IMG/VR virus record: IMGVR_UViG_3300031281_000001
Reading direction: 5' to 3' (one strand)
DNA from: an uncultured virus (IMG/VR IMGVR_UViG_3300031281_000001)
Lineage: Duplodnaviria; Heunggongvirae; Uroviricota; Caudoviricetes
DNA length: 64,000 nt
The first letter of the stretch is position 1. Each line of letters opens with the position of its first letter. A program made the translations under genes and the position numbers. This document shows positions 17,711 to 31,687 of this stretch, one piece after another. The notes beneath the pieces were generated by a model. That model had not been told where the DNA came from. It saw only the letters and a list, made by a program, of their open reading frames with translations, and made no database searches.

Positions 17711-19276
17711 ATGAATGAAGATTTTGAAGAAAGAAAGATCATTATAGGTCTTGTAATGTCTACCGAATTTATCCAACGAATAAAGAACTTTTGGTCTATT
17801 CGTCTGATTGAAACGCCGGAAGCAAAACGGATTGCAATGTGGTGCATAGAATACTATGATAAATACAATGAAGCCCCAAAAAAAGAAATAGAAACAATAT
17901 ATTTTTCCAAAAAGAAAAAAGGGCTGCCCGAGGATGTTTGTGAATTGTTCGAAGATGTTTTGCTTCCAGGTTTGTCAGAGGAGTTCGTGGAAGATGGGGG
18001 CATCAATGTGGATTATCTTGTTGACGTTGCACGAAAATACTTTGGTAGGCGAAACCTTCAAACGCACATAGAAAAGTTAATGTCGCTTTTAGAAAAGGGA
18101 AATGTAACGGAAGCTGAAAAAGAAGCTAATTCTTACATGAAATTAGCCGAAGAGTCCAATCCGTGGATAGACCTTTCACATGAAAGCATATTTGACGTTA
18201 TACATCGTGCCTTTAACCGTACCAAGAAATGTTTGATTCCATTCGAGGGGGCAATAGGTGAATTTTGGAACAAACAACTATACAGGGGGGCGTTTGTTGC
18301 ATTGATGGGGCCTGAGAAACGAGGAAAGTCCTATTGGCTATTAGAATTTGCAATGCGTGCCCGAAGAAATAAAAAGAAAGTAGCATTGTTTCAAGCAGGG
18401 GACATGGATGATGAGGATCAGATAATGCGCATAGCCAATTATTTAACTCATAAATCAGAAGACGAAGACAATTCAGGAAAAATATACGAACCCACACTTG
18501 ATTGTATTTTAAATCAAACGGACTTTTGTGACAAAAGAGAACGAACGTGTGATCGTGGTATATTTAATCACAAAATAAAAAATGAAAAAGAAGCAATTAA
18601 GTTAAGAAAAACAATAGCATATCAGGAATTGATCGACGTAAGAAAAACAGCAAAAGGATATAAAACGTGTACAAATTGTGAAATGTTTAAAAAGAGTAAA
18701 TTTGGCACACCGTGGATAAGAAAAACGGATGTAGGCCCACCATTAACGGAAGAGGAAGCAAAAGAAGCATACGACGAATTTTTCGTTCAGTCTAAACGAT
18801 CCTTTCGCATTTCTACACATGCCAATGGAACACTTACGGTAAAAGAAATTGAAAATGTTCTTGGTATTTGGGAACGTGAAGGTTTTATTTCTGATGTAAT
18901 TATAATAGACTATGCAGATCTGTTGACAGAAGATTCACAAAAGGAAGAAAGACATCGTCAAAATAAAGTTTGGAAAGATCTCCGTGGCCTTTCACAAAAG
19001 AAACATGCGTTAATAATAACGGCTACGCAAACAGATGCTGCATCATATTCCAATGATCTTTTAACATTAGACAACTATTCAGAAGACAAACGTAAGTATG
19101 GACATGTAACGGCAATGTATGGATTGAACCAAGATCCATCTGGCAGGGAAAAAGAACTGGGTGTGATGCGCATCAATGAAATAATGTTGCGAAAGGGTAA
19201 ATTTAGCCTGAAGAATCAAGTACATGTTTTGCAAAATCTAACACGTGGAATCCCTTGCCTCACAAGCTATTATTAA
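17711..19276 (+). CDS. DnaB-like replicative helicase
   Basis: Walker A GPEKRGKS, IIIDYADLL and ITATQ. Confidence 0.85.
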   Translation: MNEDFEERKIIIGLVMSTEFIQRIKNFWSIRLIETPEAKRIAMWCIEYYDKYNEAPKKEIETIYFSKKKKGLPEDVCELFEDVLLPGLSEEFVEDGGINVDYLVDVARKYFGRRNLQTHIEKLMSLLEKGNVTEAEKEANSYMKLAEESNPWIDLSHESIFDVIHRAFNRTKKCLIPFEGAIGEFWNKQLYRGAFVALMGPEKRGKSYWLLEFAMRARRNKKKVALFQAGDMDDEDQIMRIANYLTHKSEDEDNSGKIYEPTLDCILNQTDFCDKRERTCDRGIFNHKIKNEKEAIKLRKTIAYQELIDVRKTAKGYKTCTNCEMFKKSKFGTPWIRKTDVGPPLTEEEAKEAYDEFFVQSKRSFRISTHANGTLTVKEIENVLGIWEREGFISDVIIIDYADLLTEDSQKEERHRQNKVWKDLRGLSQKKHALIITATQTDAASYSNDLLTLDNYSEDKRKYGHVTAMYGLNQDPSGREKELGVMRINEIMLRKGKFSLKNQVHVLQNLTRGIPCLTSYY

Positions 19277-19352
19277 AGTCATATTAAATACAAATAAAAT
19301 TATACTAATACGGCAATTAACTATACCACGTGTTATAAAACGTTTTTGAGCG

Positions 19353-19631
19353 ATGGAATTAAAAGAATTTGAAGTAAAAAGATTGACGAATGGTAGAGGA
19401 AACTCTCATTTAGTAGTAATAACCGAACCTGCAATAGAAGATATTAGCATTGGAAGTGTACTCATAGTGCCTTATGCAGATGGTTTTAAAGACCCTAAAA
19501 GCGTAATATTGCAAGTTGATGCAGTCGGTAAACCAAAAACTGCTAACGGCTACGCATATGCGGTCGTGGCCGAATACAAAGAACGAAATTATCAAACAGT
19601 AAATAACATTAGATATGAAACACGAAAGTAA
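19353..19631 (+). CDS. Cassette 1 hypothetical protein
   Basis: ORF reading through the first attC-like arm. Confidence 0.6.
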   Translation: MELKEFEVKRLTNGRGNSHLVVITEPAIEDISIGSVLIVPYADGFKDPKSVILQVDAVGKPKTANGYAYAVVAEYKERNYQTVNNIRYETRK

Positions 19632-20055
19632 CAATAACCCACAAACTAAGGCCATGCCGTATGATGCGATGTTAGTAGCTGGCCGTGAATATAGCATTGA
19701 ATTTGATGAGAACGATAACAACGGCAACCCGTGCGGTAGGGTTCATCAATGCATTATTGGTGATATGTACCTTGAGATAATGGATATGGATGGCACGAGA
19801 TTTAATACAGTTACCTATACTGGCAAGATAGGATTTGAAGTTGAAAACAAAATATTTCCAGCATTAACATTTAATCCCTGGGTTGACAATATGATTTGGA
19901 ACTCATATAAGCTTACAGAAGAAAATGCATTGATGTTGGTTAACCACTTAATTAAGAGCGGTAACTGGACTGTAAACGAAGCACCAACAGAACAGTATGA
20001 AAAATTTGCGGGCGGGCAAGCTTTTGATAAGAGCGACTTACAGGCTTGCTACTAA
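19615..20055 (+). CDS. Cassette 2 hypothetical protein
   Basis: Starts in the attC-like loop; its stop TAA is part of TAAC. Confidence 0.7.
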   Translation: MKHESNNNPQTKAMPYDAMLVAGREYSIEFDENDNNGNPCGRVHQCIIGDMYLEIMDMDGTRFNTVTYTGKIGFEVENKIFPALTFNPWVDNMIWNSYKLTEENALMLVNHLIKSGNWTVNEAPTEQYEKFAGGQAFDKSDLQACY

Positions 20056-20179
20056 CGTTTCGTGTATGAGCAGTGGCACTTGTACACACTTTCAAATTAG
20101 CACAAAACTATCCGTGCCATTGCTTATACACGGTGTTAGCCACAGTATTTTTTAGTAATAATTTTAAAAACAATATATT

Positions 20180-20578
20180 ATGGAAAAGATTTTAAGAATT
20201 GAAGAAACTAACTTCAAAACAAAAGAAAGAAGCTGGGGCGGTTATGATGGTTATCAAATAATAACTGACCAACAGACAATACAAATTGGAATTTCAGATG
20301 GACAATGTTGTTGTGAAAACTTTGGCTGTATAATCACAAACGATGAGACCAAAGAATTTATAGGAGCTGATTTACTCGGTATTTCAATTACTGATACTGC
20401 TTTAAACAACAAAAAGATTGAAGAAATTGAATACTTGGATTGTGGCGGTGCAATGTTTGTGAACTTAGAAACAAGTGAAGGACTTCTACAATTTGTAGCC
20501 TATAATTCTCACAACGGATATTACGGACATGAAGCGGTTTTAATTAGTAAACAACTTAACTGCGAAGAAGGTCTTTAA
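20180..20578 (+). CDS. Cassette 3 hypothetical phage protein
   Basis: QCCCE..G and YNSHNGYYGH motifs. Confidence 0.75.
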   Translation: MEKILRIEETNFKTKERSWGGYDGYQIITDQQTIQIGISDGQCCCENFGCIITNDETKEFIGADLLGISITDTALNNKKIEEIEYLDCGGAMFVNLETSEGLLQFVAYNSHNGYYGHEAVLISKQLNCEEGL

Positions 20579-20646
20579 TATTGTGGCTAACGTTGATGAT
20601 ATGCCCTGATGGGCGATAAATAGTAATAACTTTTAAATTTAGTACA

Positions 20647-20928
20647 ATGAATAAAGAACCGAAAATAGTTTCAAATTTTGACGAACACGCCCATTTGGGT
20701 ATATCTATTGTTAGTTGCCGTTTATTTGATTTGATGGCACTACAAAAAGAAGAATATCACAAATATACAACTCCGATTTATACAAAATTAGATGGAATGT
20801 ACGGATATATTTGTGTAAGTGGATATAAAGTGTTTTTCTTCTGGAATGATGTTCAAAGTGGAAATGTTAGTTGTGATGATGTTACAGAAAAATTCAGAAT
20901 TGAGTATGTTACCGAAAATGGCAACTAA
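20647..20928 (+). CDS. Cassette 4 hypothetical protein
   Basis: Starts in the attC-like loop; stop lies in TAAC. Confidence 0.65.
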   Translation: MNKEPKIVSNFDEHAHLGISIVSCRLFDLMALQKEEYHKYTTPIYTKLDGMYGYICVSGYKVFFFWNDVQSGNVSCDDVTEKFRIEYVTENGN

Positions 20929-21013
20929 CGGTTTTAATAAAAAATCGTTTTAATGTTTTTTATTTATTGTTGTGCTTTCGTTTTTGCGGGAGGGCAACAC
21001 AAACTTTAAGATT

Positions 21014-21202
21014 ATGAAAGCTGAATACTGGAAAGAAAGGATAAAAGAAATTGTAAGTAACAACGATGAAGAAAGTTTAACCCTACTTGCTAAACTAATT
21101 GAAGAAGCTGAACAGGCTAAACAAGAGTTGAGAAATAAAGGTTATGGATGGACTGGATTAAGCTTATTAAAAACAGTTATTGAAGAAGTGCCGAGTGCGT
21201 AG
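21014..21202 (+). CDS. Cassette 5 hypothetical protein
   Basis: ATG at 21014 (MKAEYWK). Confidence 0.6.
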   Translation: MKAEYWKERIKEIVSNNDEESLTLLAKLIEEAEQAKQELRNKGYGWTGLSLLKTVIEEVPSA

Positions 21203-21350
21203 GCAAATGAAGCACAACGATGGTAATATGAAATGGCTGGGATTCGGAGCTACTAACCTATCCCACGCCACAAAACTAACAGGTAGCAAGCTGGCTAAAA
21301 AGTCCGATAACACCCAGCTATTTTATATTATGTGTTAGCGGTAGTTAATT

Positions 21351-21755
21351 ATGTATAAACAATATGTTGTTAAAATTAAACAGTGTGCAAGTTGTGTTTA
21401 TAATAAATGCACAAAAATAAACACACCAATATATAACGAAGAAATTCAAGAAATGCAAGATTTTAGTTATGTGGCAATATGCTCTAAATTAAAAATTGAA
21501 TTAAATGATACTAGCATTATCCCAAATAACTGCCCACTTGATACTTGCAATGTTTATGAAATATGTGTGCATTTAGATGGGGTATCTGTAAATGAAAAAA
21601 GAAAGGTATTTGATGTGTTTAAAGAGGATTATGATGTGGAAATTTTAGATTACATAAGTATGCCAATTGCAAGTATTATTTTTATGTTGATTGATAAAAA
21701 AATTGAACTTCCTGAATATGCTGAATATGTTACTGGAAGGTTTAATTACCGCTAA
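21351..21755 (+). CDS. Cassette 6 hypothetical Cys-rich protein
   Basis: Stop lies in TAAC. Confidence 0.65.
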   Translation: MYKQYVVKIKQCASCVYNKCTKINTPIYNEEIQEMQDFSYVAICSKLKIELNDTSIIPNNCPLDTCNVYEICVHLDGVSVNEKRKVFDVFKEDYDVEILDYISMPIASIIFMLIDKKIELPEYAEYVTGRFNYR

Positions 21756-21815
21756 CGGATTGCGTATTGGCGTTGTTGCCTACTAGCTTAAAATTGAAAC
21801 AAAAATTTTGATGAT

Positions 21816-22082
21816 ATGAAAAAAGATAAATTGAAAAACGGAAGCAATAACGCTAATACGCTGTTATGTGCTGATAATTTTACGGGTTACTTCGATGATG
21901 CTAACAAACCAATTTTTGTTGGTGATAAATTAAGAAGTGAGTGGAATTATGAAATAATTGTAGTAAAAGACGAAGATGGTGATTATAGCGGAAAATTGGT
22001 TTGTGATAACAACCACAGTTGCAAAAACATTCCTTATGCCTTAAATAAGGGCAAAGGTTATAGTAAAATTATTTGTACATAA
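21816..22082 (+). CDS. Cassette 7 YopX-like fragment protein
   Basis: FTGYFDDANKPIFVGDKL resembles the YopX motif; starts in the attC-like loop; stop lies in TAAC. Confidence 0.6.
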   Translation: MKKDKLKNGSNNANTLLCADNFTGYFDDANKPIFVGDKLRSEWNYEIIVVKDEDGDYSGKLVCDNNHSCKNIPYALNKGKGYSKIICT

Positions 22083-22214
22083 CGTTGGTAATATGAAAAG
22101 TTGGCTTTGCCGTCGCTTTCAATTTACCACAGCAGCTTGATAGCCAATTTTTTATATTACGTGTTATCGGCTGCCTTTTATCAATCGAATTTTTAACCTT
22201 TAAATATAAACACA

Positions 22215-22595
22215 ATGAGTAAATACATAACAGAATTTCAGCAAACAGGAAACTCAATTGTAAATGTTGATTTGATTTGCAAAGAGTGGAATGATAGGTT
22301 CACAATTAGCACTTGGATTAATGACAAAGAAGAAAAATACACTTTTGTTGTAAATGGTAAACGCAAAAACACAAGACTTTGCAAAACTAAAATATCAAAA
22401 GACCAAGCGATGGATATTGTTTCAAAACTTGCTCTTATTCACGTAAAAGATAATACTTTCAGGAGTGGTGGAGCTTACCATTCTAAAAATTTTATAAAAT
22501 CAGAGGTTGAAAGAATAACTAAAATCAAACAAGAAAAGGAGCAGGAATTATCATTTATTAATCAGGCACTTTATATGTACGAACGCTGTCTTTAA
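22215..22595 (+). CDS. Cassette 8 hypothetical protein
   Basis: ORF bounded by inverted termini. Confidence 0.7.
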   Translation: MSKYITEFQQTGNSIVNVDLICKEWNDRFTISTWINDKEEKYTFVVNGKRKNTRLCKTKISKDQAMDIVSKLALIHVKDNTFRSGGAYHSKNFIKSEVERITKIKQEKEQELSFINQALYMYERCL

Positions 22596-22671
22596 GGTTG
22601 CCGATAACGGCAACTTGTAAGGCGTAGTTGCGCCAACAATTGAAATACAAAACTTTAAAATAATTACTAAG

Positions 22672-22947
22672 ATGACAAAAGAGAACGAACGTACCGAATT
22701 TGAAGCGCAATTCGCTTTACAAAATGTTAGCAACCGTGTTTTTTCTGACCATTTTTTACAGAAAACCACTAAGCTAACGTTGATTGAAAAAATAGTGTTG
22801 AAGTTTAAAAAGAAGCTGTTTTTTGTAGATGACCTTGAATTGATTACGATTGTTTATAAAAAATGGAGGGGTAAAACTTACATACTAAACAGCTACCATA
22901 ACCCACCAATGCACCCATTGTGTAGATGCTCATTACATGGTTGCTAA
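22672..22947 (+). CDS. Cassette 9 hypothetical protein
   Basis: Starts in the attC-like loop; stop lies in TAAC; ends PPMHPLCRC. Confidence 0.65.
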   Translation: MTKENERTEFEAQFALQNVSNRVFSDHFLQKTTKLTLIEKIVLKFKKKLFFVDDLELITIVYKKWRGKTYILNSYHNPPMHPLCRCSLHGC

Positions 22948-22961
22948 CTATTATATATTAA

Positions 22962-23321
22962 ATGAACTATATAAACATAAGTAAAATGAATACTTTTGAA
23001 CAATCAACTCTTAAAAAATTTGAAAATATTTTAAGGCAAAGAAATTACTCTGAAAGAACTATTCAGATATATTCATTTTATGTTTTAAAATATTATAAAT
23101 CAATAAATAAAGAAACATATCAATTAACTACTCGAGATTTAGTTAATTATTTATATAATTTTAATTATAGTTCTATAAGTCAACAAAATCAAGTTATAAA
23201 CGGATTAAAAGTATTTTACAAATACATCCTTAATAAATCTGATATTCATTTAAATAAAATTGAACGCCCACATAAAGAAAAACATTTACAAGATGTAGTA
23301 AAAAGATTTGAACCAATATAA
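22962..23321 (+). pseudogene. Truncated tyrosine recombinase (N-terminal SAM-like domain of integron-integrase/Xer type only)
   Basis: LRQRNYSERTIQIY...SISQQNQVINGLKVFYKYIL...IERP.KEKHL stops where the catalytic domain should begin; no R-H-R-Y residues. Confidence 0.75.
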
Positions 23322-23339: not shown

Positions 23340-23828
23340 GTGATGCAAACATTTCTACCTTACCCAGATTTTTTGTATAGTGCCAGAGTTTTAGATAAGA
23401 AACGGTGCTGGAAACAAGTTGTAGAAGCTAAACAGATAATTTCAATATTATCTCATTTAGAAGAATGTCCAAAAGATAAGGTCCCCTGGGAAAAACATCC
23501 AGCAGTTAAAATGTGGGAAGGGCATATAGAATGCTTAAAACTTTATTATAATTTTTTTTTATTTGTTTCTAAGGATGTTCATAAGGTAAATACTACCTTG
23601 CCTTTATTTCAGGAGGTAGATGACAAATACCGAAATTGGGAGGGTATATATAAACCCTGGTGGTTAGGAAATAAAGATTTCCATCGTGCTATGCGGTCGA
23701 GATTAATAGAAAAGAATAGGGAATTTTACCTTCCATTGTTCCCAGATGATGAAGGATTTAATGATGGTTTATATCTTTGGCCTGACATGGAAACACGTAC
23801 GTTTAAAACAATTAAACCAAAAAAATAG
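23340..23828 (+). CDS. Pyrimidine-dimer DNA glycosylase / endonuclease V family-like protein
   Basis: MQTFLPY.DF..SA.VLD.KR..KQ.VEA.QI...HPAVKMWEG...PWWLG...FH...RSRL. Confidence 0.8.
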   Translation: MMQTFLPYPDFLYSARVLDKKRCWKQVVEAKQIISILSHLEECPKDKVPWEKHPAVKMWEGHIECLKLYYNFFLFVSKDVHKVNTTLPLFQEVDDKYRNWEGIYKPWWLGNKDFHRAMRSRLIEKNREFYLPLFPDDEGFNDGLYLWPDMETRTFKTIKPKK

Positions 23829-24874: not shown

Positions 24875-25927
24875 ATGAATAGGGCAAAACTTCCTAAAAA
24901 TGGTTTTGATTTTAAAGATAAAATTACCCCCGGTAAAGGTTTGCCGGGGCGTTTTATCTTTCCTCCTTTTACAGTGTTGAGGGCTACCGACGGTGAATGG
25001 AATGTTAGAAAACGACAATGGATATCACTTGGTATAAAAAGTGAGGTAGGTCGTGGTGGAAATCTTACTATTCGTGATCCTCAATTGAACGACTTTAATG
25101 TATATAAACATGGAAAGTATAAAAGAAAAGCAGCAACCACTTATAATATTGGTAACAAAACGGAATGGGAAAAAGGTCTTTTGCATAAAGGGAAAACAAT
25201 CAATACTTCAACTGAAAAATGGGATGGTGGTGAAAGTGCGTGGCAGAATAGTGGCACTTCCATTTTTGATCCTGTACTTTGTGAACTTATGTATTCTTGG
25301 TTTTGCCCAATCGAAGGACAAGTCATTGATCCTTTTGCTGGAGGATCCGTCAGGGGAATCGTTGCAACCTTCATGGGATATAAATACTGGGGTTCAGAAT
25401 TACGACAAGAACAAGTTGATGAAAATGTGCTTCAGGGAAAGTCGATTTGTAACGGCAAGGAACCAGTATGGATTTGCGGTGACTCATATGAATATGTGAA
25501 AGAAGCCCCACAATCAGACTTTTTATTTTCATGTCCACCATACGGAAATCTTGAAGTGTATTCAGAATTAGATGCTGATATAAGTAATATGAATTATGAT
25601 GCGTTCATAGACCGTTATACAATTATAATACGTCGTTTCGTGCGTCGTTTAAAAGAAAACCGCTTCGCCTGTTTTGTTGTAGGTAATTTTAGAGACAAAA
25701 AAACAGGAATATATCATAACTTTGTAGGGGATACTATAAAAGCATTTAAACTTGCTGGTATGAATTTCTACAATGACGCTATATTAATCACACCAACTGG
25801 TAGTTTGCCAGTTCGTGCTGGAAGACAATTCGATGCCAGCCGTAAATTAGGCAAAGCGCATCAAAATGTTTTGGTGTTTTACAAAGGAAACCCGAAGGAA
25901 ATTAATAATATATTTAACTATGAATAA
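24875..25927 (+). CDS. DNA N4/N6 methyltransferase
   Basis: IDPFAGG (motif I) and SCPPY (motif IV). Confidence 0.85.
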   Translation: MNRAKLPKNGFDFKDKITPGKGLPGRFIFPPFTVLRATDGEWNVRKRQWISLGIKSEVGRGGNLTIRDPQLNDFNVYKHGKYKRKAATTYNIGNKTEWEKGLLHKGKTINTSTEKWDGGESAWQNSGTSIFDPVLCELMYSWFCPIEGQVIDPFAGGSVRGIVATFMGYKYWGSELRQEQVDENVLQGKSICNGKEPVWICGDSYEYVKEAPQSDFLFSCPPYGNLEVYSELDADISNMNYDAFIDRYTIIIRRFVRRLKENRFACFVVGNFRDKKTGIYHNFVGDTIKAFKLAGMNFYNDAILITPTGSLPVRAGRQFDASRKLGKAHQNVLVFYKGNPKEINNIFNYE

Positions 25928-26558
25928 CATATTATCTTCCAACACCACGACGCGTAAGGTTATTTGTGGTAATTCTTTGAATTTATTAAATAATTACGAA
26001 AACGTCAAAGCTATAATTACAAGTTTGCCTGATATGGAAGAAATAGGCGAAACCAAAATTTATAAGTATCATCTGTGGTTGTTTGTAGCTTGCGAAAAAT
26101 TAAGAAATTCTATTGATGAAAATGGGGTTATTTTTTTCTATCAAACAAATAGAAAATATAAAGGAACATTAATTGATAAAAATAGTTTAATTACATCTCA
26201 ATTTATACCTTACGAATTTAACAAAGTATTTGAAAAAATAATATTGAGAAAAGAACCAGAAACAATTGATAGGTATCGGCCTACCTATACTACTTTAACA
26301 GCATTTTCCAAAACGTTAAAAGCCGGTCAACCCACACCAGATATTATACATAGAGGAAACATGATGTATAAAAACGCAATGGGGGAAAATGCAATAAAAG
26401 TATGTTTGGATTTTGTTAAGAAAAATGTAGAAACTGATACAATACTTGATCCCTTCTGCGGCAGAGGTTCGGTTTTACGTTTAGCAAACTTCTACGGATA
26501 TAATGCCATTGGAATTGATATCGATCCAAAACAATGTGAAATAGCAAAAAATATATGA
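25920..26558 (+). CDS. Second DNA methyltransferase-like protein
   Basis: ITSLPD (atypical motif IV) and LDPFCGRGS...GIDID (motif I). Confidence 0.75.
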   Translation: MNNILSSNTTTRKVICGNSLNLLNNYENVKAIITSLPDMEEIGETKIYKYHLWLFVACEKLRNSIDENGVIFFYQTNRKYKGTLIDKNSLITSQFIPYEFNKVFEKIILRKEPETIDRYRPTYTTLTAFSKTLKAGQPTPDIIHRGNMMYKNAMGENAIKVCLDFVKKNVETDTILDPFCGRGSVLRLANFYGYNAIGIDIDPKQCEIAKNI

Positions 26559-28369: not shown

Positions 28370-29662
28370 ATGCAAGGCTTTTTCACACGAAAAGAAACGG
28401 AATCTAAAACACGCCCAACAGGAAAGATACACTCCTGTTTTAGTTGTGGTTTGTATCGTGAAGTTACTACTCCAAAAATGAAACCTTTCGGAAATTTCAA
28501 GAAAGGAATTATGAATATAGGAGAAGCACCTGGAGAAGTAGAGGATGATCGTAGTAAACAATGGCAAGGGAAAGCTGGAAGAGTTCTAAAAAATATTTAT
28601 AAAGAACTTGGTATCGATCTTTTTGAAGATTGCATAAACATAAATGCTGTTAATTGTAGACCAATAGATGAAGTTGGTAAAAATGCAAAACCGACATCAC
28701 ATCAAATTGATTGTTGCAGAGATATGATGGTATTAAAAGCCATTAAACAATACAAACCAAAGGTGATAATACTTTTAGGTGAATCAGCCGTGACAAGTAT
28801 TATAGGGTATCGATGGAAGAAAAACCTGGGGGGAAATGAAAATGGGACAAGCAAAAAGTCTGGAATTATATCAAAATGGAGGGGTTGGGCAATTCCTGAT
28901 CAGGATTTTCAAACTTGGATTTGTCCTACGTTTCATCCATCATATGTAATACGGGAAGACAAACCTGAAATCGATACCATTTGGAAGCTTGATTTAGAAC
29001 AAGCATTCGAATACGTAAAGAAACCATTTCCGGTATGGAAAGAACCGAATATCGAAACGATAACGGACTTATCCATATTCGATAACCCTAAGTTCGGACG
29101 TTCCAAATATTTCGTAATGAACCAGGCGGTTTTAGACTTTGAAACTACAGGATTGAAACCACATGCAAAAGGTCACGAAATAATATGTGCAGCGATTGCG
29201 GATACAGAAGATCATGCCTATGCTTTTATGATGCCTAAAACACGTCGTGAACTTCGTCCATTCTTGAATTTTCTAAAGAATGAAAAAATTGCAAAAGTAG
29301 CTCAAAACATGAAGTATGAGCATACATGGGCCAAAGTTTTGTTGCGGTGTGAAATAAAACCTTGGGCATGGGATACAATGCAGGCTACACACATTCAAGA
29401 CAATCGTTCAGGTGTAACCGGATTGAAATTTCAAAACTATGTTACATTTGGTATTGTTGATTATGATTCAGAAATAGCACCTTATTTGAGATGTAAAGAT
29501 GAATCAAGTGCAAACAACATAAATCGTATCCACGAACTTTTAAAATTACCAGGAGGTAAGGAAAAACTTTTGAAATATTGTGGATGGGATGCAGTAATTG
29601 AAAGTCGTTTATCTATACTACAACGTAAATTATTTGAACCAAAATTAGGAGGTAAAAAATGA
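28370..29662 (+). CDS. DNA polymerase subunit: uracil-DNA glycosylase (family 4-like) plus 3'-5' exonuclease
   Basis: CFSC, IGEAPG..ED, NAVNCRP and TFHPSY, followed by exonuclease motifs DFETTG, QNMKYE and YCGWDA. Confidence 0.88.
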   Translation: MQGFFTRKETESKTRPTGKIHSCFSCGLYREVTTPKMKPFGNFKKGIMNIGEAPGEVEDDRSKQWQGKAGRVLKNIYKELGIDLFEDCININAVNCRPIDEVGKNAKPTSHQIDCCRDMMVLKAIKQYKPKVIILLGESAVTSIIGYRWKKNLGGNENGTSKKSGIISKWRGWAIPDQDFQTWICPTFHPSYVIREDKPEIDTIWKLDLEQAFEYVKKPFPVWKEPNIETITDLSIFDNPKFGRSKYFVMNQAVLDFETTGLKPHAKGHEIICAAIADTEDHAYAFMMPKTRRELRPFLNFLKNEKIAKVAQNMKYEHTWAKVLLRCEIKPWAWDTMQATHIQDNRSGVTGLKFQNYVTFGIVDYDSEIAPYLRCKDESSANNINRIHELLKLPGGKEKLLKYCGWDAVIESRLSILQRKLFEPKLGGKK

Positions 29663-30198
29663 AAAGAATATCAACAGTTCCTTTTATTGATTTAATTGAT
29701 TTAAAAATGATAAAAGGATTGGAAAATATAAAACGAGCATGTGAAATTGCTGTGGTTGGACATCATTCCATAGCAATAGTAACAGTTAAAGGTTTTGGAT
29801 TTTCTATGTTACAAAAAGCATATCACAACATAGATAGTGAAGTATGTATTCAAGAATATGAACAAGAAAAACGTGATAATTATGACATTGTTGTTGAAAT
29901 GCAACGTGAACCTTTTGAAAAATATTTTTCAGATTTGTGTGAAAATTCTTTTGTAGTTCAGGAAAGAATAGCAAAAGCAAAAAATTTTATGCTTGGTAAA
30001 GAACCTTTATCTATGAATTTAGATAATCAATCAAAAGCTTTATTAAAAAATGCCTTTGAAAAATTATATTTATCGTTCAAAGATATTAATGGGATACTAC
30101 AAATTTCGCGAACAATAGCAACATTAGATTGTGAAGAACACATAAAAGGAATCCACATAGCTGAGGCAATAATGTATAAAAATTATAAAAATGATTGA
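29659..30198 (+). CDS. Internally deleted ComM/YifB (Mg-chelatase-like) protein
   Basis: N-terminal DL..IKG.ENIKRACEIA..G.H and C-terminal LS...ILQISRTIA.LD...I...HIAEAI.Y; no Walker A or B. Confidence 0.7.
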   Translation: MKRISTVPFIDLIDLKMIKGLENIKRACEIAVVGHHSIAIVTVKGFGFSMLQKAYHNIDSEVCIQEYEQEKRDNYDIVVEMQREPFEKYFSDLCENSFVVQERIAKAKNFMLGKEPLSMNLDNQSKALLKNAFEKLYLSFKDINGILQISRTIATLDCEEHIKGIHIAEAIMYKNYKND

Positions 30199-31687
30199 AC
30201 TACATCCAAATTCGTATCAAGCTTATGCATTAATGCACGAAGGTGTTCTCGCGCTTGCACGTGCAGAAATGCAGGGATTTCGTGTAGATGTAGATTACGT
30301 ATTTAGAAAAAAAGAACACCTTAAACGTAAAATTGTACGATTAGAAGAAAAATTCAAAGATACTGATTTTTACAAGGGATGGGAAAAAGCAATGAGGGGA
30401 AAGAAAGTAAATATAAATTCTCCTACACAACTTGGTCATTACCTGTATAACGTGATGGGGATAGAACCCGTGAAATATACTGAAGGTGGAAAGGCTGGAG
30501 GGAATAAAAAAGGGGCAACGGATGAAGAGGCTTTGAAACAACTGGACATACCCGAACTGAATATTCTTTTAGAAAAAGGCAAAATAAAAAAAACGATTGA
30601 TGTTTTAGAGGGGTTTTATAATGAACAGATAGATGGATTCATACATCCTTTTTATAACTTACACACAGTCAGAACATTTCGTTCAAGTAGTGATAGCCCA
30701 AATTTCCAGAACACACCAAAAAGAGACGAGGAACAAATGAAAATTTGCCGTCGTGCTATATTTCCACGTTTAGGTCATCAATTGATGGAAATTGACTTTG
30801 GGCAATTGGAAGTTCGTATAAGTGCATGTTATAACAAAGATGAGAAATTGATAAATGATATACTTCATGGTGATATGCACGCTGATATGGCTACTGAAAT
30901 ATTTATGATTGATGCTATAGAAACAAAATTAAATAGTCAAAATAAAGTAACAAAAAGTGGGCATAAGAATTTACGCCAGGCAGCAAAAAATGGTTTTGTG
31001 TTTCCTCAATTCTATGGTGACTATTATAAGAATTGTGTTCAAAACATAGCAATGAACTGGTGTAAATTACCACAAGGCAAATGGTCGTATGGTCAGGGAA
31101 TCGTAATTGATGAGATAGGAAAATCGTTCAGACAATATCATATTTCTGATCATTTAATTTCCAAAGGAATTAAAGAATATGGTAAGATTGTAAGAACGGA
31201 AATGGGTACGAAAGTAACTGGGTTTTTAAGGCATGTTCAAAAAATAGAGAATTCATTTTGGAATCAACGATATACACAATACAGAGATTGGAAAGAGGTA
31301 CACTTCGAAGAATATCAAAAACGTGGTTATATTGATACATTAACAGGTTTTAGGTGTTCAGGTGTAATGAGAAAGAATGACGTGAGCAATTATCCAGTGC
31401 AAGGTGCTGCATTCCATTGTTTGTTGTGGTCTTTGATACAAACCGATAAATTTATTTATGAACTTGCAAAGCTTGACACGAGAATTATTGGGCAGATTCA
31501 TGACTCTTTAATTCTTGATGTTAATCCAAATGAACTTGAACTCGTTGCAAAAACAATACACAGAATAACCACTAAGGATTTACTTGAGCATTGGAACTGG
31601 ATTATTCTTCCATTGGAAGTTGGTGTCGATTTATTTCAAGTAGATGGTTCATGGGTTGATAAAGTTGAAGAATTTAAATTAAATTGA
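30191..31687 (+). CDS. polA: Family A DNA polymerase, polymerase domain
   Basis: RSSSDSPNFQN, motif A EIDFGQLEVR, motif B RQAAK..FVFPQFYG, NYPVQG and motif C QIHDS. Confidence 0.93.
   Translation: MIELHPNSYQAYALMHEGVLALARAEMQGFRVDVDYVFRKKEHLKRKIVRLEEKFKDTDFYKGWEKAMRGKKVNINSPTQLGHYLYNVMGIEPVKYTEGGKAGGNKKGATDEEALKQLDIPELNILLEKGKIKKTIDVLEGFYNEQIDGFIHPFYNLHTVRTFRSSSDSPNFQNTPKRDEEQMKICRRAIFPRLGHQLMEIDFGQLEVRISACYNKDEKLINDILHGDMHADMATEIFMIDAIETKLNSQNKVTKSGHKNLRQAAKNGFVFPQFYGDYYKNCVQNIAMNWCKLPQGKWSYGQGIVIDEIGKSFRQYHISDHLISKGIKEYGKIVRTEMGTKVTGFLRHVQKIENSFWNQRYTQYRDWKEVHFEEYQKRGYIDTLTGFRCSGVMRKNDVSNYPVQGAAFHCLLWSLIQTDKFIYELAKLDTRIIGQIHDSLILDVNPNELELVAKTIHRITTKDLLEHWNWIILPLEVGVDLFQVDGSWVDKVEEFKLN

Follow-up and report, generated by a model that had tools for sequence, protein, structure and literature searches.

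Hairpin recombination sites that probably move with, and start translation of, the genes behind them: an integron-like array in an uncultured Caudoviricetes genome

Between 19.5 and 22.9 kb of the window, by which is meant the whole 64,000-nucleotide (nt) stretch of DNA considered here from the uncultured virus IMGVR_UViG_3300031281_000001 (Caudoviricetes), small genes alternate with eight integron-type hairpin sites, each bounded by AAC on its left arm and GTT on its right. It is likely that this is an integron-type array set in a phage replication module, that its mobile unit consists of a hairpin together with the gene downstream of it, and that the hairpin loops serve as start regions for translation. 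To judge from sequence comparison, one DNA element probably both moves a gene and starts its translation.

The array and its hairpin sites

Nine small open reading frames (ORFs), all on the + strand, lie between the gene for a DnaB-like helicase (17711–19276) and that for a pyrimidine-dimer glycosylase (23340–23828), with the hairpin sites between them. The features of the array are as follows (ORFs are named by their first position and sites by S numbers; related loci, below, carry L numbers).

AAC at 19240, end of GTT at 19334, + strand: S0, a doubtful candidate site; end complementarity 5/9
19353–19631, + strand: ORF of 92 amino acids (aa), first of the array, without a convincing hairpin of its own; overlaps ORF 19615 by 17 nt
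19545–19673, + strand: S1, hairpin site of 129 nt; loop ATG at 19615; two G.T wobbles at the fixed positions
19615–20055, + strand: cassette ORF of 146 aa; start in the S1 loop, stop TAA inside the next left box (S2)
20054–20137, + strand: S2, hairpin site of 84 nt, followed by ORF 20180–20578 (DUF7448) with its own ATG; together a 535-nt unit
20589–20712, + strand: S3, hairpin site of 124 nt; loop ATG at 20647
20647–20928, + strand: cassette ORF of 93 aa; start in the S3 loop, stop in the S4 left box; alternative ATG at 20734
20927–20971, + strand: S4, minimal hairpin site of 45 nt (stem -3.8 kcal/mol), followed by ORF 21014–21202 with its own ATG
21216–21336, + strand: S5, hairpin site of 121 nt, its loop without ATG, followed by ORF 21351–21755 with its stop in the S6 left box
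21754–21865, + strand: S6, hairpin site of 112 nt; loop ATG at 21816
21816–22082, + strand: cassette ORF of 88 aa; start in the S6 loop, stop in the S7 left box
22081–22165, + strand: S7, hairpin site of 85 nt, followed by ORF 22215–22595 with its own ATG
22606–22728, + strand: S8, hairpin site of 123 nt; loop ATG at 22672
22672–22947, + strand: cassette ORF of 91 aa; start in the S8 loop, stop in the terminal left box
22939–22985, + strand: end of the array; last left box GGTTGCTAAC (22939–22948), then attI-like TATTATATAT... up to the recombinase start
22962–23321, + strand: truncated tyrosine recombinase of 119 aa, N-terminal SAM-like domain only; likely start ATG at 22986

All 64 kb were searched with a purpose-written scanner for AAC...GTT hairpins, at a threshold of -11 kcal/mol or better. 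On the + strand it returned ten hairpins, seven of which are S1, S2, S3, S5, S6, S7, and S8, while three weaker ones lie elsewhere; it missed S4, which falls below the threshold, and the doubtful S0. When S8 is folded in isolation, the minimum-energy DNA structure favors local stems, and its long-range arms were found by eye and in the analysis of arms.

The ends of the units follow a rule. The nine nucleotides counted from the GTT of one site complement the nine that end in the AAC of the next in all seven pairs from S1 to S8 (six of them at 9/9, one at 8/9), as compared with 3–7/9 inside a single site, and S8 and the terminal left box are, by eye, complementary at 9/9. S4 is accepted as a site despite its weak stem because it obeys the rule at 9/9 on both flanks. 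The rule is symmetric and therefore silent on whether a gene belongs to the hairpin that follows it (exchange at G|TT) or to the one that precedes it (exchange at AA|C). The TAA inside the next YTAAC box is the stop codon for five of the nine ORFs of the array.

The hairpin formed by the + strand is more stable than that formed by the - strand at seven of the eight sites, and the loops on the + strand are 47% A (36 non-redundant sites). Instead of the extrahelical bases of integron sites, six of the eight have exactly two wobbles, G on the left arm and T on the right, 15–16 and 20–22 nt from AAC; the reverse pair occurs in none. The wobble Ts thus sit on the arm opposite AAC, 12–14 and 18–19 nt from the end of GTT, and single bulged bases were seen by eye only in S1 and S8. 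Nivina (2016) reports that in integron sites the strand that recombines carries AAC on the 5' arm and extrahelical bases on the arm facing it, and that its unpaired parts are rich in purines. By these marks the + strand would be the one recombined here, and the wobble Ts, near the positions expected of extrahelical bases, may play their role.

A second subtype of site is possible in related arrays: units at L005 4250 and 6735 and at L006 5285 and 5670 open after AAC with T[AG]GAAT[GT]GTGTAAGATTAGTA rather than with the usual arm.

Probable translation from the loops

As the first-pass annotation of this DNA had stated, ORFs 19615, 20647, 21816, and 22672 start at an ATG within the loop of a hairpin and read on through its right arm and GTT, and the N-termini given there are correct. 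The right arm and GTT encode about 15–25 N-terminal residues in these four of the nine units of the window. The annotation had also associated loop starts with long sites and separate starts with short ones. The second association stands, as the genes behind S2, S4, and S7 have an ATG 42–49 nt past GTT, but site length had to be rejected as a predictor of a loop start: S5 is long (121 nt), yet its gene has its own ATG 14 nt past GTT, so length is not the rule.

Are the loop ATGs used? Of 36 non-redundant sites, taken from related loci as well as the window, 19 have a loop ATG that is open as far as GTT and in the frame of the unit's main ORF, as opposed to 7 of 72 for the other two frames (Fisher p = 2e-6). 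A filter on the boxes dropped from this count the S3-type sites of the window, L018, L023, and L024.

The families of the four proteins tell how durable the arrangement is. The family of ORF 21816 (63 matches, of which 45 were aligned) has a conserved core beginning at FTG. It carries at least two unrelated types of leader (including the group-2 type) that are similar in length and retain both the ATG and the frame, and it also has short forms, found in contigs without hairpins, with their own ATG 2–7 residues before the core. In the window, this ORF has no ATG, GTG, or TTG in frame from the loop to 21996, 130 nt past GTT. In the family of ORF 20647 (13 matches, all aligned) the leader is nearly invariant wherever the hairpin is retained. 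One homolog, in L025, is preceded by an unrelated hairpin, yet that hairpin too has a loop ATG in frame; in two others, L020 and L021, the left arm and half of the loop have been lost and a new ATG gained, while the residues of the right arm are still encoded. The homolog of ORF 19615 in L001 is preceded by a strongly diverged hairpin (similarity z of 5.4, where unrelated sites score 2–3 and orthologs of S6 score 10–13), in which the loop ATG has shifted but is still in frame. A homolog of ORF 22672 in L019 lacks the left arm and retains the loop, the ATG, and the leader, and another, in L015, begins at an ATG of its own with a different N-terminus. At the homolog in L016 (2990–3010) there are nine T residues where the window has six, putting the longer upstream ORF out of frame; either an error in the homopolymer or a true frameshift may be the cause. 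Finally, the GenBank annotation of Freya_10, an isolate of a cultured phage considered below, places the starts of two coding sequences inside such hairpins.

Alternatively, the loop ATGs might be chance upstream extensions in A-rich, stop-poor loops, with the real starts at or after GTT, and several facts count against translation from the loops. Homologs of ORFs 21816 and 22672 outside arrays, a kind of homolog that the first-pass annotation had proposed to examine, do without the leader and begin at an ATG of their own, a few residues ahead of the core; the leader is evidently dispensable for the fold. The leaders are predicted by AlphaFold to be unstructured, with a predicted local distance difference test (pLDDT) score below 50 for residues 1–25 of ORF 20647 and for residues 1–17 of ORF 21816, where the fold sets in from about residue 21 at scores above 90. 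Alternative starts are available in three of the four ORFs: ORF 19615 has further in-frame ATGs at 19654 and 19669 (the latter overlapping the box as ATG|TT), ORF 20647 has one at 20734, past GTT, and ORF 22672 has a TTG at 22780. Gene callers always choose the longest frame, and the count of loop ATGs includes orthologous sites repeatedly (four entries from the S6 family and two from the S3 family). Against an origin by chance stand the excess of ATGs in the gene's own frame over the control frames, the lack of any alternative start in ORF 21816 (a non-standard codon would be needed), the survival of frame and ATG through indels and through complete turnover of the hairpin sequence, and the persistence in L020, L021, and L019 of starts upstream of GTT even after loss of the left arm. 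Chance extension is for these reasons unlikely, and ribosomes would appear to start in the loops.

The first-pass annotation had gone further, in proposing that the site supplies expression signals as well as N-terminal coding sequence. The coding part, with a start codon kept in frame by diverged, replaced, and half-lost hairpins, is supported by comparison of the sequences. A promoter in the loops was sought and rejected, as the Bacteroidota -7 motif TAnnTTTG occurs not once in the 36 loops (0.5 expected). Bacteroidota-type hosts initiate translation on unstructured, A-rich leaders, and the starts in the window would fit this habit: Shine-Dalgarno-like cores precede only 8 of the 62 long ORFs, and A is over-represented at -3, -5, -12, and -13 before ORF starts. 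The host of the phage is probably a member of the Bacteroidota.

Unit boundaries: the hairpin moves with the gene downstream

The first-pass annotation followed the classical view, in which G|TT is the point of exchange. Comparison with related arrays places most boundaries elsewhere, at the left-box AAC and thus upstream of the loop. The unit of ORF 21816 (21753–22096 of the window) matches L002, L003, and L004 at 83–91% from the left box of S6 to the left box of S7. The bases before the first AAC differ in all three, and L002 and L003 also have a different hairpin after the unit; the exception is L004, in which the match extends through an S7-like hairpin. The unit composed of S3 and ORF 20647 likewise matches from AAC to AAC in L018/19, L022/23, and L024, with both flanks different. 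L005 and L006 have units in common at 97–100% identity but in changed order, and eight of the nine block ends inspected fall at an AAC box or no more than 25 nt after it, the ninth lying inside a gene.

The ten cultured isolates of Polaribacter phage Freya (MT732463–MT732472, loci L028–L034), with genomes of 43,978 to 48,920 bp, provide further cases. The distance upstream of the Freya integrase gene varies with the length of the genome, and the differences examined are those in the number of hairpin-led units just upstream of that gene. Freya_1 and Freya_10, compared over about 7 kb at the locus, are 100% and 99.9% identical on the two flanks of a 4.94-kb block of 12 genes, which opens with a hairpin right after ...ACAAC and ends in ...GCTAAC directly before the leader of the integrase gene. 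Over the array region, in which Freya_5, 6, and 9 were compared, Freya_9 equals Freya_10 minus one 307-nt unit adjoining the integrase gene, and the array of Freya_5 ends at a different AAC; Freya_2–4, 7, and 8 were followed through a table of coverage only, which gives a ladder of shared content. Danklef isolates have 38% of the Freya_10 block in common, at 97%. The paper on the Freya isolates gives the range of genome sizes and a single integrase, and its main text, in the part accessible, does not contain the words cassette, hairpin, or variable region (PMC8776804).

Contigs from the phage's own population offer similar junctions. A contig from run X2 joins position 20051 to 20587 (with an ambiguity of 8 nt) and so skips 535 nt (20052–20586), that is, S2 with ORF 20180. 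A second contig from the same run departs from the window two bases past the left box of S6, into what is apparently the arm of a different hairpin. Run X1 is possibly the source sample of the window and hence not independent.

With the left-box AAC as the main point of exchange, a hairpin goes with the gene that follows it. Five independent lines of sequence comparison agree that the hairpin travels with that gene, the reverse of the classical integron layout. For the same reason, the main boundary lying upstream of the loop, a leader normally moves with its own gene. Very probably, then, as far as sequence can tell, the hairpins supply a start and the first 15–25 codons as part of the gene's own cassette and not of its upstream neighbor's.

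The DNA methyltransferases in units of related arrays may be mentioned here (L003 4329–5012, L003 1667–3242, and L027 3033–3842); the enzyme at L003 4329 starts in the loop of a hairpin.

Exchanges at GTT

Some cases do not conform to exchange at AAC, and several of them weigh on the side of the classical layout, in which the hairpin belongs to the gene upstream, exchange is at G|TT, and the loop ATG becomes fused, by chance or by design, to whatever cassette comes next, so that new N-terminal fusions would be the usual product of shuffling. The protein P0079 has 22 of the 23 leader residues of ORF 20647 and then, just past the GTT-AGT codons, becomes an unrelated protein. One contig of run X2 matches about 97 nt of the loop and right arm of S1 (with two differences) and diverges right after GTTA, as read from tables of matches. 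The same genes may have different leaders, as in L025 (ORF 20647) and L001 (ORF 19615), with homology setting in at or near GTT, and in L001 the left half of the hairpin of ORF 19615 is poorly conserved. Further irregularities are a breakpoint inside a gene (L005 2118) and the first unit of the array (ORF 19353), which violates the end rule (5/9) and has no convincing hairpin. The symmetric end rule itself fits the classical layout equally well. Nonetheless, shared units carry the upstream hairpin, not the downstream one (the S7-like hairpin of L004 is the sole exception seen), the indels among Freya_1, 5, 9, and 10 and the 535-nt skip in run X2 begin after AAC and have the hairpin at their 5' end, and arrays finish in a bare left box beside the recombinase gene. 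As the main pathway the classical layout is, in our estimation, very unlikely.

The claim of the first-pass annotation that crossover could create new N-terminal fusions therefore holds for the minority of exchanges at GTT (P0079 and the X2 contig) and not for the usual outcome, with its boundary at AAC. Deletion of the extrahelical bases relaxes the choice of strand, according to Nivina (2016). The exceptions at GTT would fit occasional recombination at the right box, as might be expected if sites lacking extrahelical bases are less strict about which strand recombines. Given the near-symmetry of the sites, we propose, the other strand may now and then recombine, at G|TT, and so swap leaders.

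The recombinase and the end of the array

The array ends beside a gene for a tyrosine recombinase. The protein of the window matches PF13495 (E = 1.2e-11), and its nearest NCBIfam families are XerA-type and integron integrases. Its nearest full-length relatives cluster at 264–271 residues, and L026 and L027 have an array of this kind immediately upstream of such a full-length gene, on the same strand. The last unit there ends in ...CGCTAAC or ...ACATAAC, and then come TATTATATATAAAAT... or TATAATATATAAATT... and the start codon; the counterpart in the window is ...TTGCTAAC followed by TATTATATATTAAAT.... The window, L026, and L027 all retain the junction AAC|TATWATATAT. This conserved junction and the one-unit difference between Freya_9 and Freya_10 at the corresponding place indicate that units are inserted at a fixed site beside the integrase gene. 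Read from the other strand, this is the order of an integron, with integrase, attI, and cassettes, but here the cassette genes all point toward the recombinase gene. A full-length Xer-like recombinase, of 268–270 residues, would be what moves the units.

The recombinase of the window is truncated and lacks the catalytic domain; its array would therefore now be immobile unless helped in trans. In five related contigs, a search for the domain PF00589 gave a match only in the contig of L004, far from the array. The full-length relatives in L026 and L027 are below the cut-off for integron integrases (TIGR02249, 143–151 bits in two stretches, as compared with 265), and even their best family, XerA-type (NF040815), is matched below its cut-off of 220, at 183 and 174 bits. 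Compared with IntI4 of Vibrio cholerae (PDB 2a3v), the phage protein has 39 residues where IntI4 has 87. According to Smyshlyaev et al. (2021), integrons cannot function without this insertion, although the integron-like subgroup does not conserve it fully. Because the recombinase lacks the IntI insertion and falls below the family thresholds, the system, for all that it behaves as an integron does, is not classed as a canonical one.

As to the truncation, the protein P0080 of another genome (111 aa) is 66% identical to the N-terminal domain of the window's recombinase and equally truncated. Either a form with this domain only recurs, or the contig is cut.

Stem-loop cassettes are known from T4-type phages, where shuffling by ordinary recombination has been proposed. 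A like account here, in which the hairpins would be stem-loops with a regulatory role, as terminators or RNA elements, rather than sites of site-specific recombination, and homologous or illegitimate recombination between similar repeats would shuffle the modules, might draw on the short motifs common to the hairpins of different units (through which BLAST matches extend 13–25 nt past some boxes), on the breakpoint inside a gene, and on the truncated recombinase, but it is the least likely of the alternatives, as AAC, GTT, and the positions of the two wobbles stay constant while the arms vary from unit to unit, the units have ends that complement each other, the window, L026, L027, and Freya all have their junctions exactly at AAC next to the gene of a tyrosine recombinase, and the stems have no T-run after them.

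Comparison with known systems

The array resembles integrons, and the clusters of attC sites lacking integron integrases (CALINs), in its small and mostly unknown genes set between imperfect hairpins whose base is marked by AAC and GTT, in the complementary ends of its units, in the stop codons within the box, and in the unpaired parts that are purine-rich on one strand. Like integrons, it has new units inserted beside a tyrosine recombinase gene; like a CALIN, it is in the window a cluster (of eight sites) whose neighboring recombinase ORF (119 aa) has no catalytic domain. The differences are in layout and parts. In an integron, attC comes after the gene it belongs to, and transcription is from the promoter of the platform. 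Here the gene is downstream of the hairpin and points away from it, so that the hairpin is a 5' leader and not a 3' trailer, and the cassette genes and the recombinase gene run in the same direction. The full-length recombinases are about 48 residues short at the family-specific insertion of IntI4, and two fixed G.T wobbles occupy the expected places of extrahelical bases.

Xer proteins resolve chromosome dimers at double-stranded dif sites. The phage proteins are like those of Xer type in that their best sequence matches are of this kind (archaeal XerA; PDB 4a8e, 5hxy), with similar length and no IntI insertion, and unlike them in adjoining arrays of hairpin cassettes.

Qi et al. (2023, PMC9892861) describe virulent phages, a Polaribacter phage among them, that carry clusters of attC sites, and they note methyltransferases in phage cassettes. 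In class 1 integrons, attI1 contains translation signals (ORF-11, ORF-17, and ORF-18) and attC sites contain short ORFs, as set out in the review PMC8876359. These too are recombination sites with a start codon and a short frame running across the crossover point, aiding expression of the neighboring cassette; they encode separate, coupled small peptides, whereas here the frame is that of the cassette protein itself, and the site lies in the same mobile unit. Sites of the attC type have also been embedded in coding sequences by design (Nivina et al. 2020, PMC7439510). There, as here, a structure-specific hairpin site is found inside protein-coding sequence, but here the situation is natural and recurrent instead of engineered. 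In the literature searched, the coverage of which leaves most subscription journals outside, no description turned up of cassettes in which the gene's own reading frame begins inside the loop of a hairpin ahead of it, nor of arrays of flavobacterial phages tied to a Xer-like recombinase without the insertion.

Genomic setting

The window has a G+C content of about 32% and the appearance of a phage genome. The array stands in a replication module on the + strand that includes genes for an SNF2 helicase, a primase, a replication initiator, a DnaB-like helicase, a methyltransferase, a sliding clamp, and a split family A polymerase; at the far end of the window, from 42 to 64 kb, the ORFs are on the - strand. 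An N6/N4 DNA methyltransferase extends over two overlapping ORFs (24875–25927 and 25866–26558), perhaps because of programmed slippage or a frameshift. Two ORFs make up the family A DNA polymerase, one with a uracil-DNA glycosylase (UDG) domain and a 3'-5' exonuclease (28370–29662) and the other with the polymerase domain (30191–31687), and between them sits an ORF of 179 aa (29659–30198).

The end of the array farthest from the recombinase gene is untidy. ORF 19353 has no stop in the left box of S1; it runs through the left arm and terminates in the loop, and its C-terminus has in this way received a 28-codon extension from the hairpin of the next unit, a fusion of the opposite kind. S0 is a weak hairpin over the last 12 codons of the helicase gene, perhaps a decayed distal site or a product of chance. 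The idea that the tail of the helicase had been replaced by a first hairpin (with a predicted ancestral end of ...QNLTIIY) was rejected, as the helicase of L027 ends in ...VLQNLKRGRPIIGSYL, resembling ...VLQNLTRGIPCLTSYY of the window. S0 is considered doubtful because the tail of the helicase, conserved in L027, is native, and the left arm of S0 lies inside the helicase coding sequence.

Searched as DNA against the INPHARED phage set, the array region gave a sole match of 158 nt, within the glycosylase gene, and the virus record G001 (a 22-kb fragment) did not match the region. None of the sequencing runs listed for the region is an RNA run. Viral contigs yielded no useful result when searched for relatives of the helicase or with alignment A3, and alignment A2 gave one spurious 12-residue match in genome contigs. 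L014 and L017 were weak matches and were excluded from use.

Proposed mechanism and implications

A unit in the proposed mechanism would start right after the AAC of a left box and would consist of the hairpin, the GTT box, and the ORF, ending at the next ...AAC, where the TAA of the box would often double as the stop codon. New units would enter beside the recombinase gene, at the attI-like junction AAC|TATWATATAT. The A-rich loop, 5' of its own gene, would serve as the translation start region in a phage poor in Shine-Dalgarno sequences. In hosts that do not make use of Shine-Dalgarno sequences, the hairpin might act as a start module independent of context, each captured gene bringing with it a start and a short, disordered N-terminal tag. 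A broader proposal, to which we give an even chance, is that flavobacterial phages have an active cassette capture of their own, akin to integrons yet separate from them, with a short Xer-like recombinase lacking the IntI insertion, sites with fixed G.T wobbles in place of extrahelical bases, cassettes that put the hairpin first, and a portable module for starting translation.

The system is of the integron kind, but in a form that is new. Cassettes of integrons are usually described as promoterless genes with a trailing site, dependent on one promoter in the platform, and their sites have been regarded mainly as obstacles to translation. In the array described here the leading site appears to carry the start codon, so that a captured gene may be translatable anywhere in a co-directional phage operon. 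If the proposal is true, there is a cassette recombinase without the domain thought essential for integron function, and a cultured system in which to test it, in the ten Freya isolates, which apparently differ essentially in the cassettes they carry beside the integrase gene. Annotators would have to be wary, as the orientation of attC judged from box sequences alone can mislead when sites are near-symmetric. And the exchange of very small accessory genes, methyltransferases included, among phages of Bacteroidota would be explained, with neighboring genes left undisturbed.

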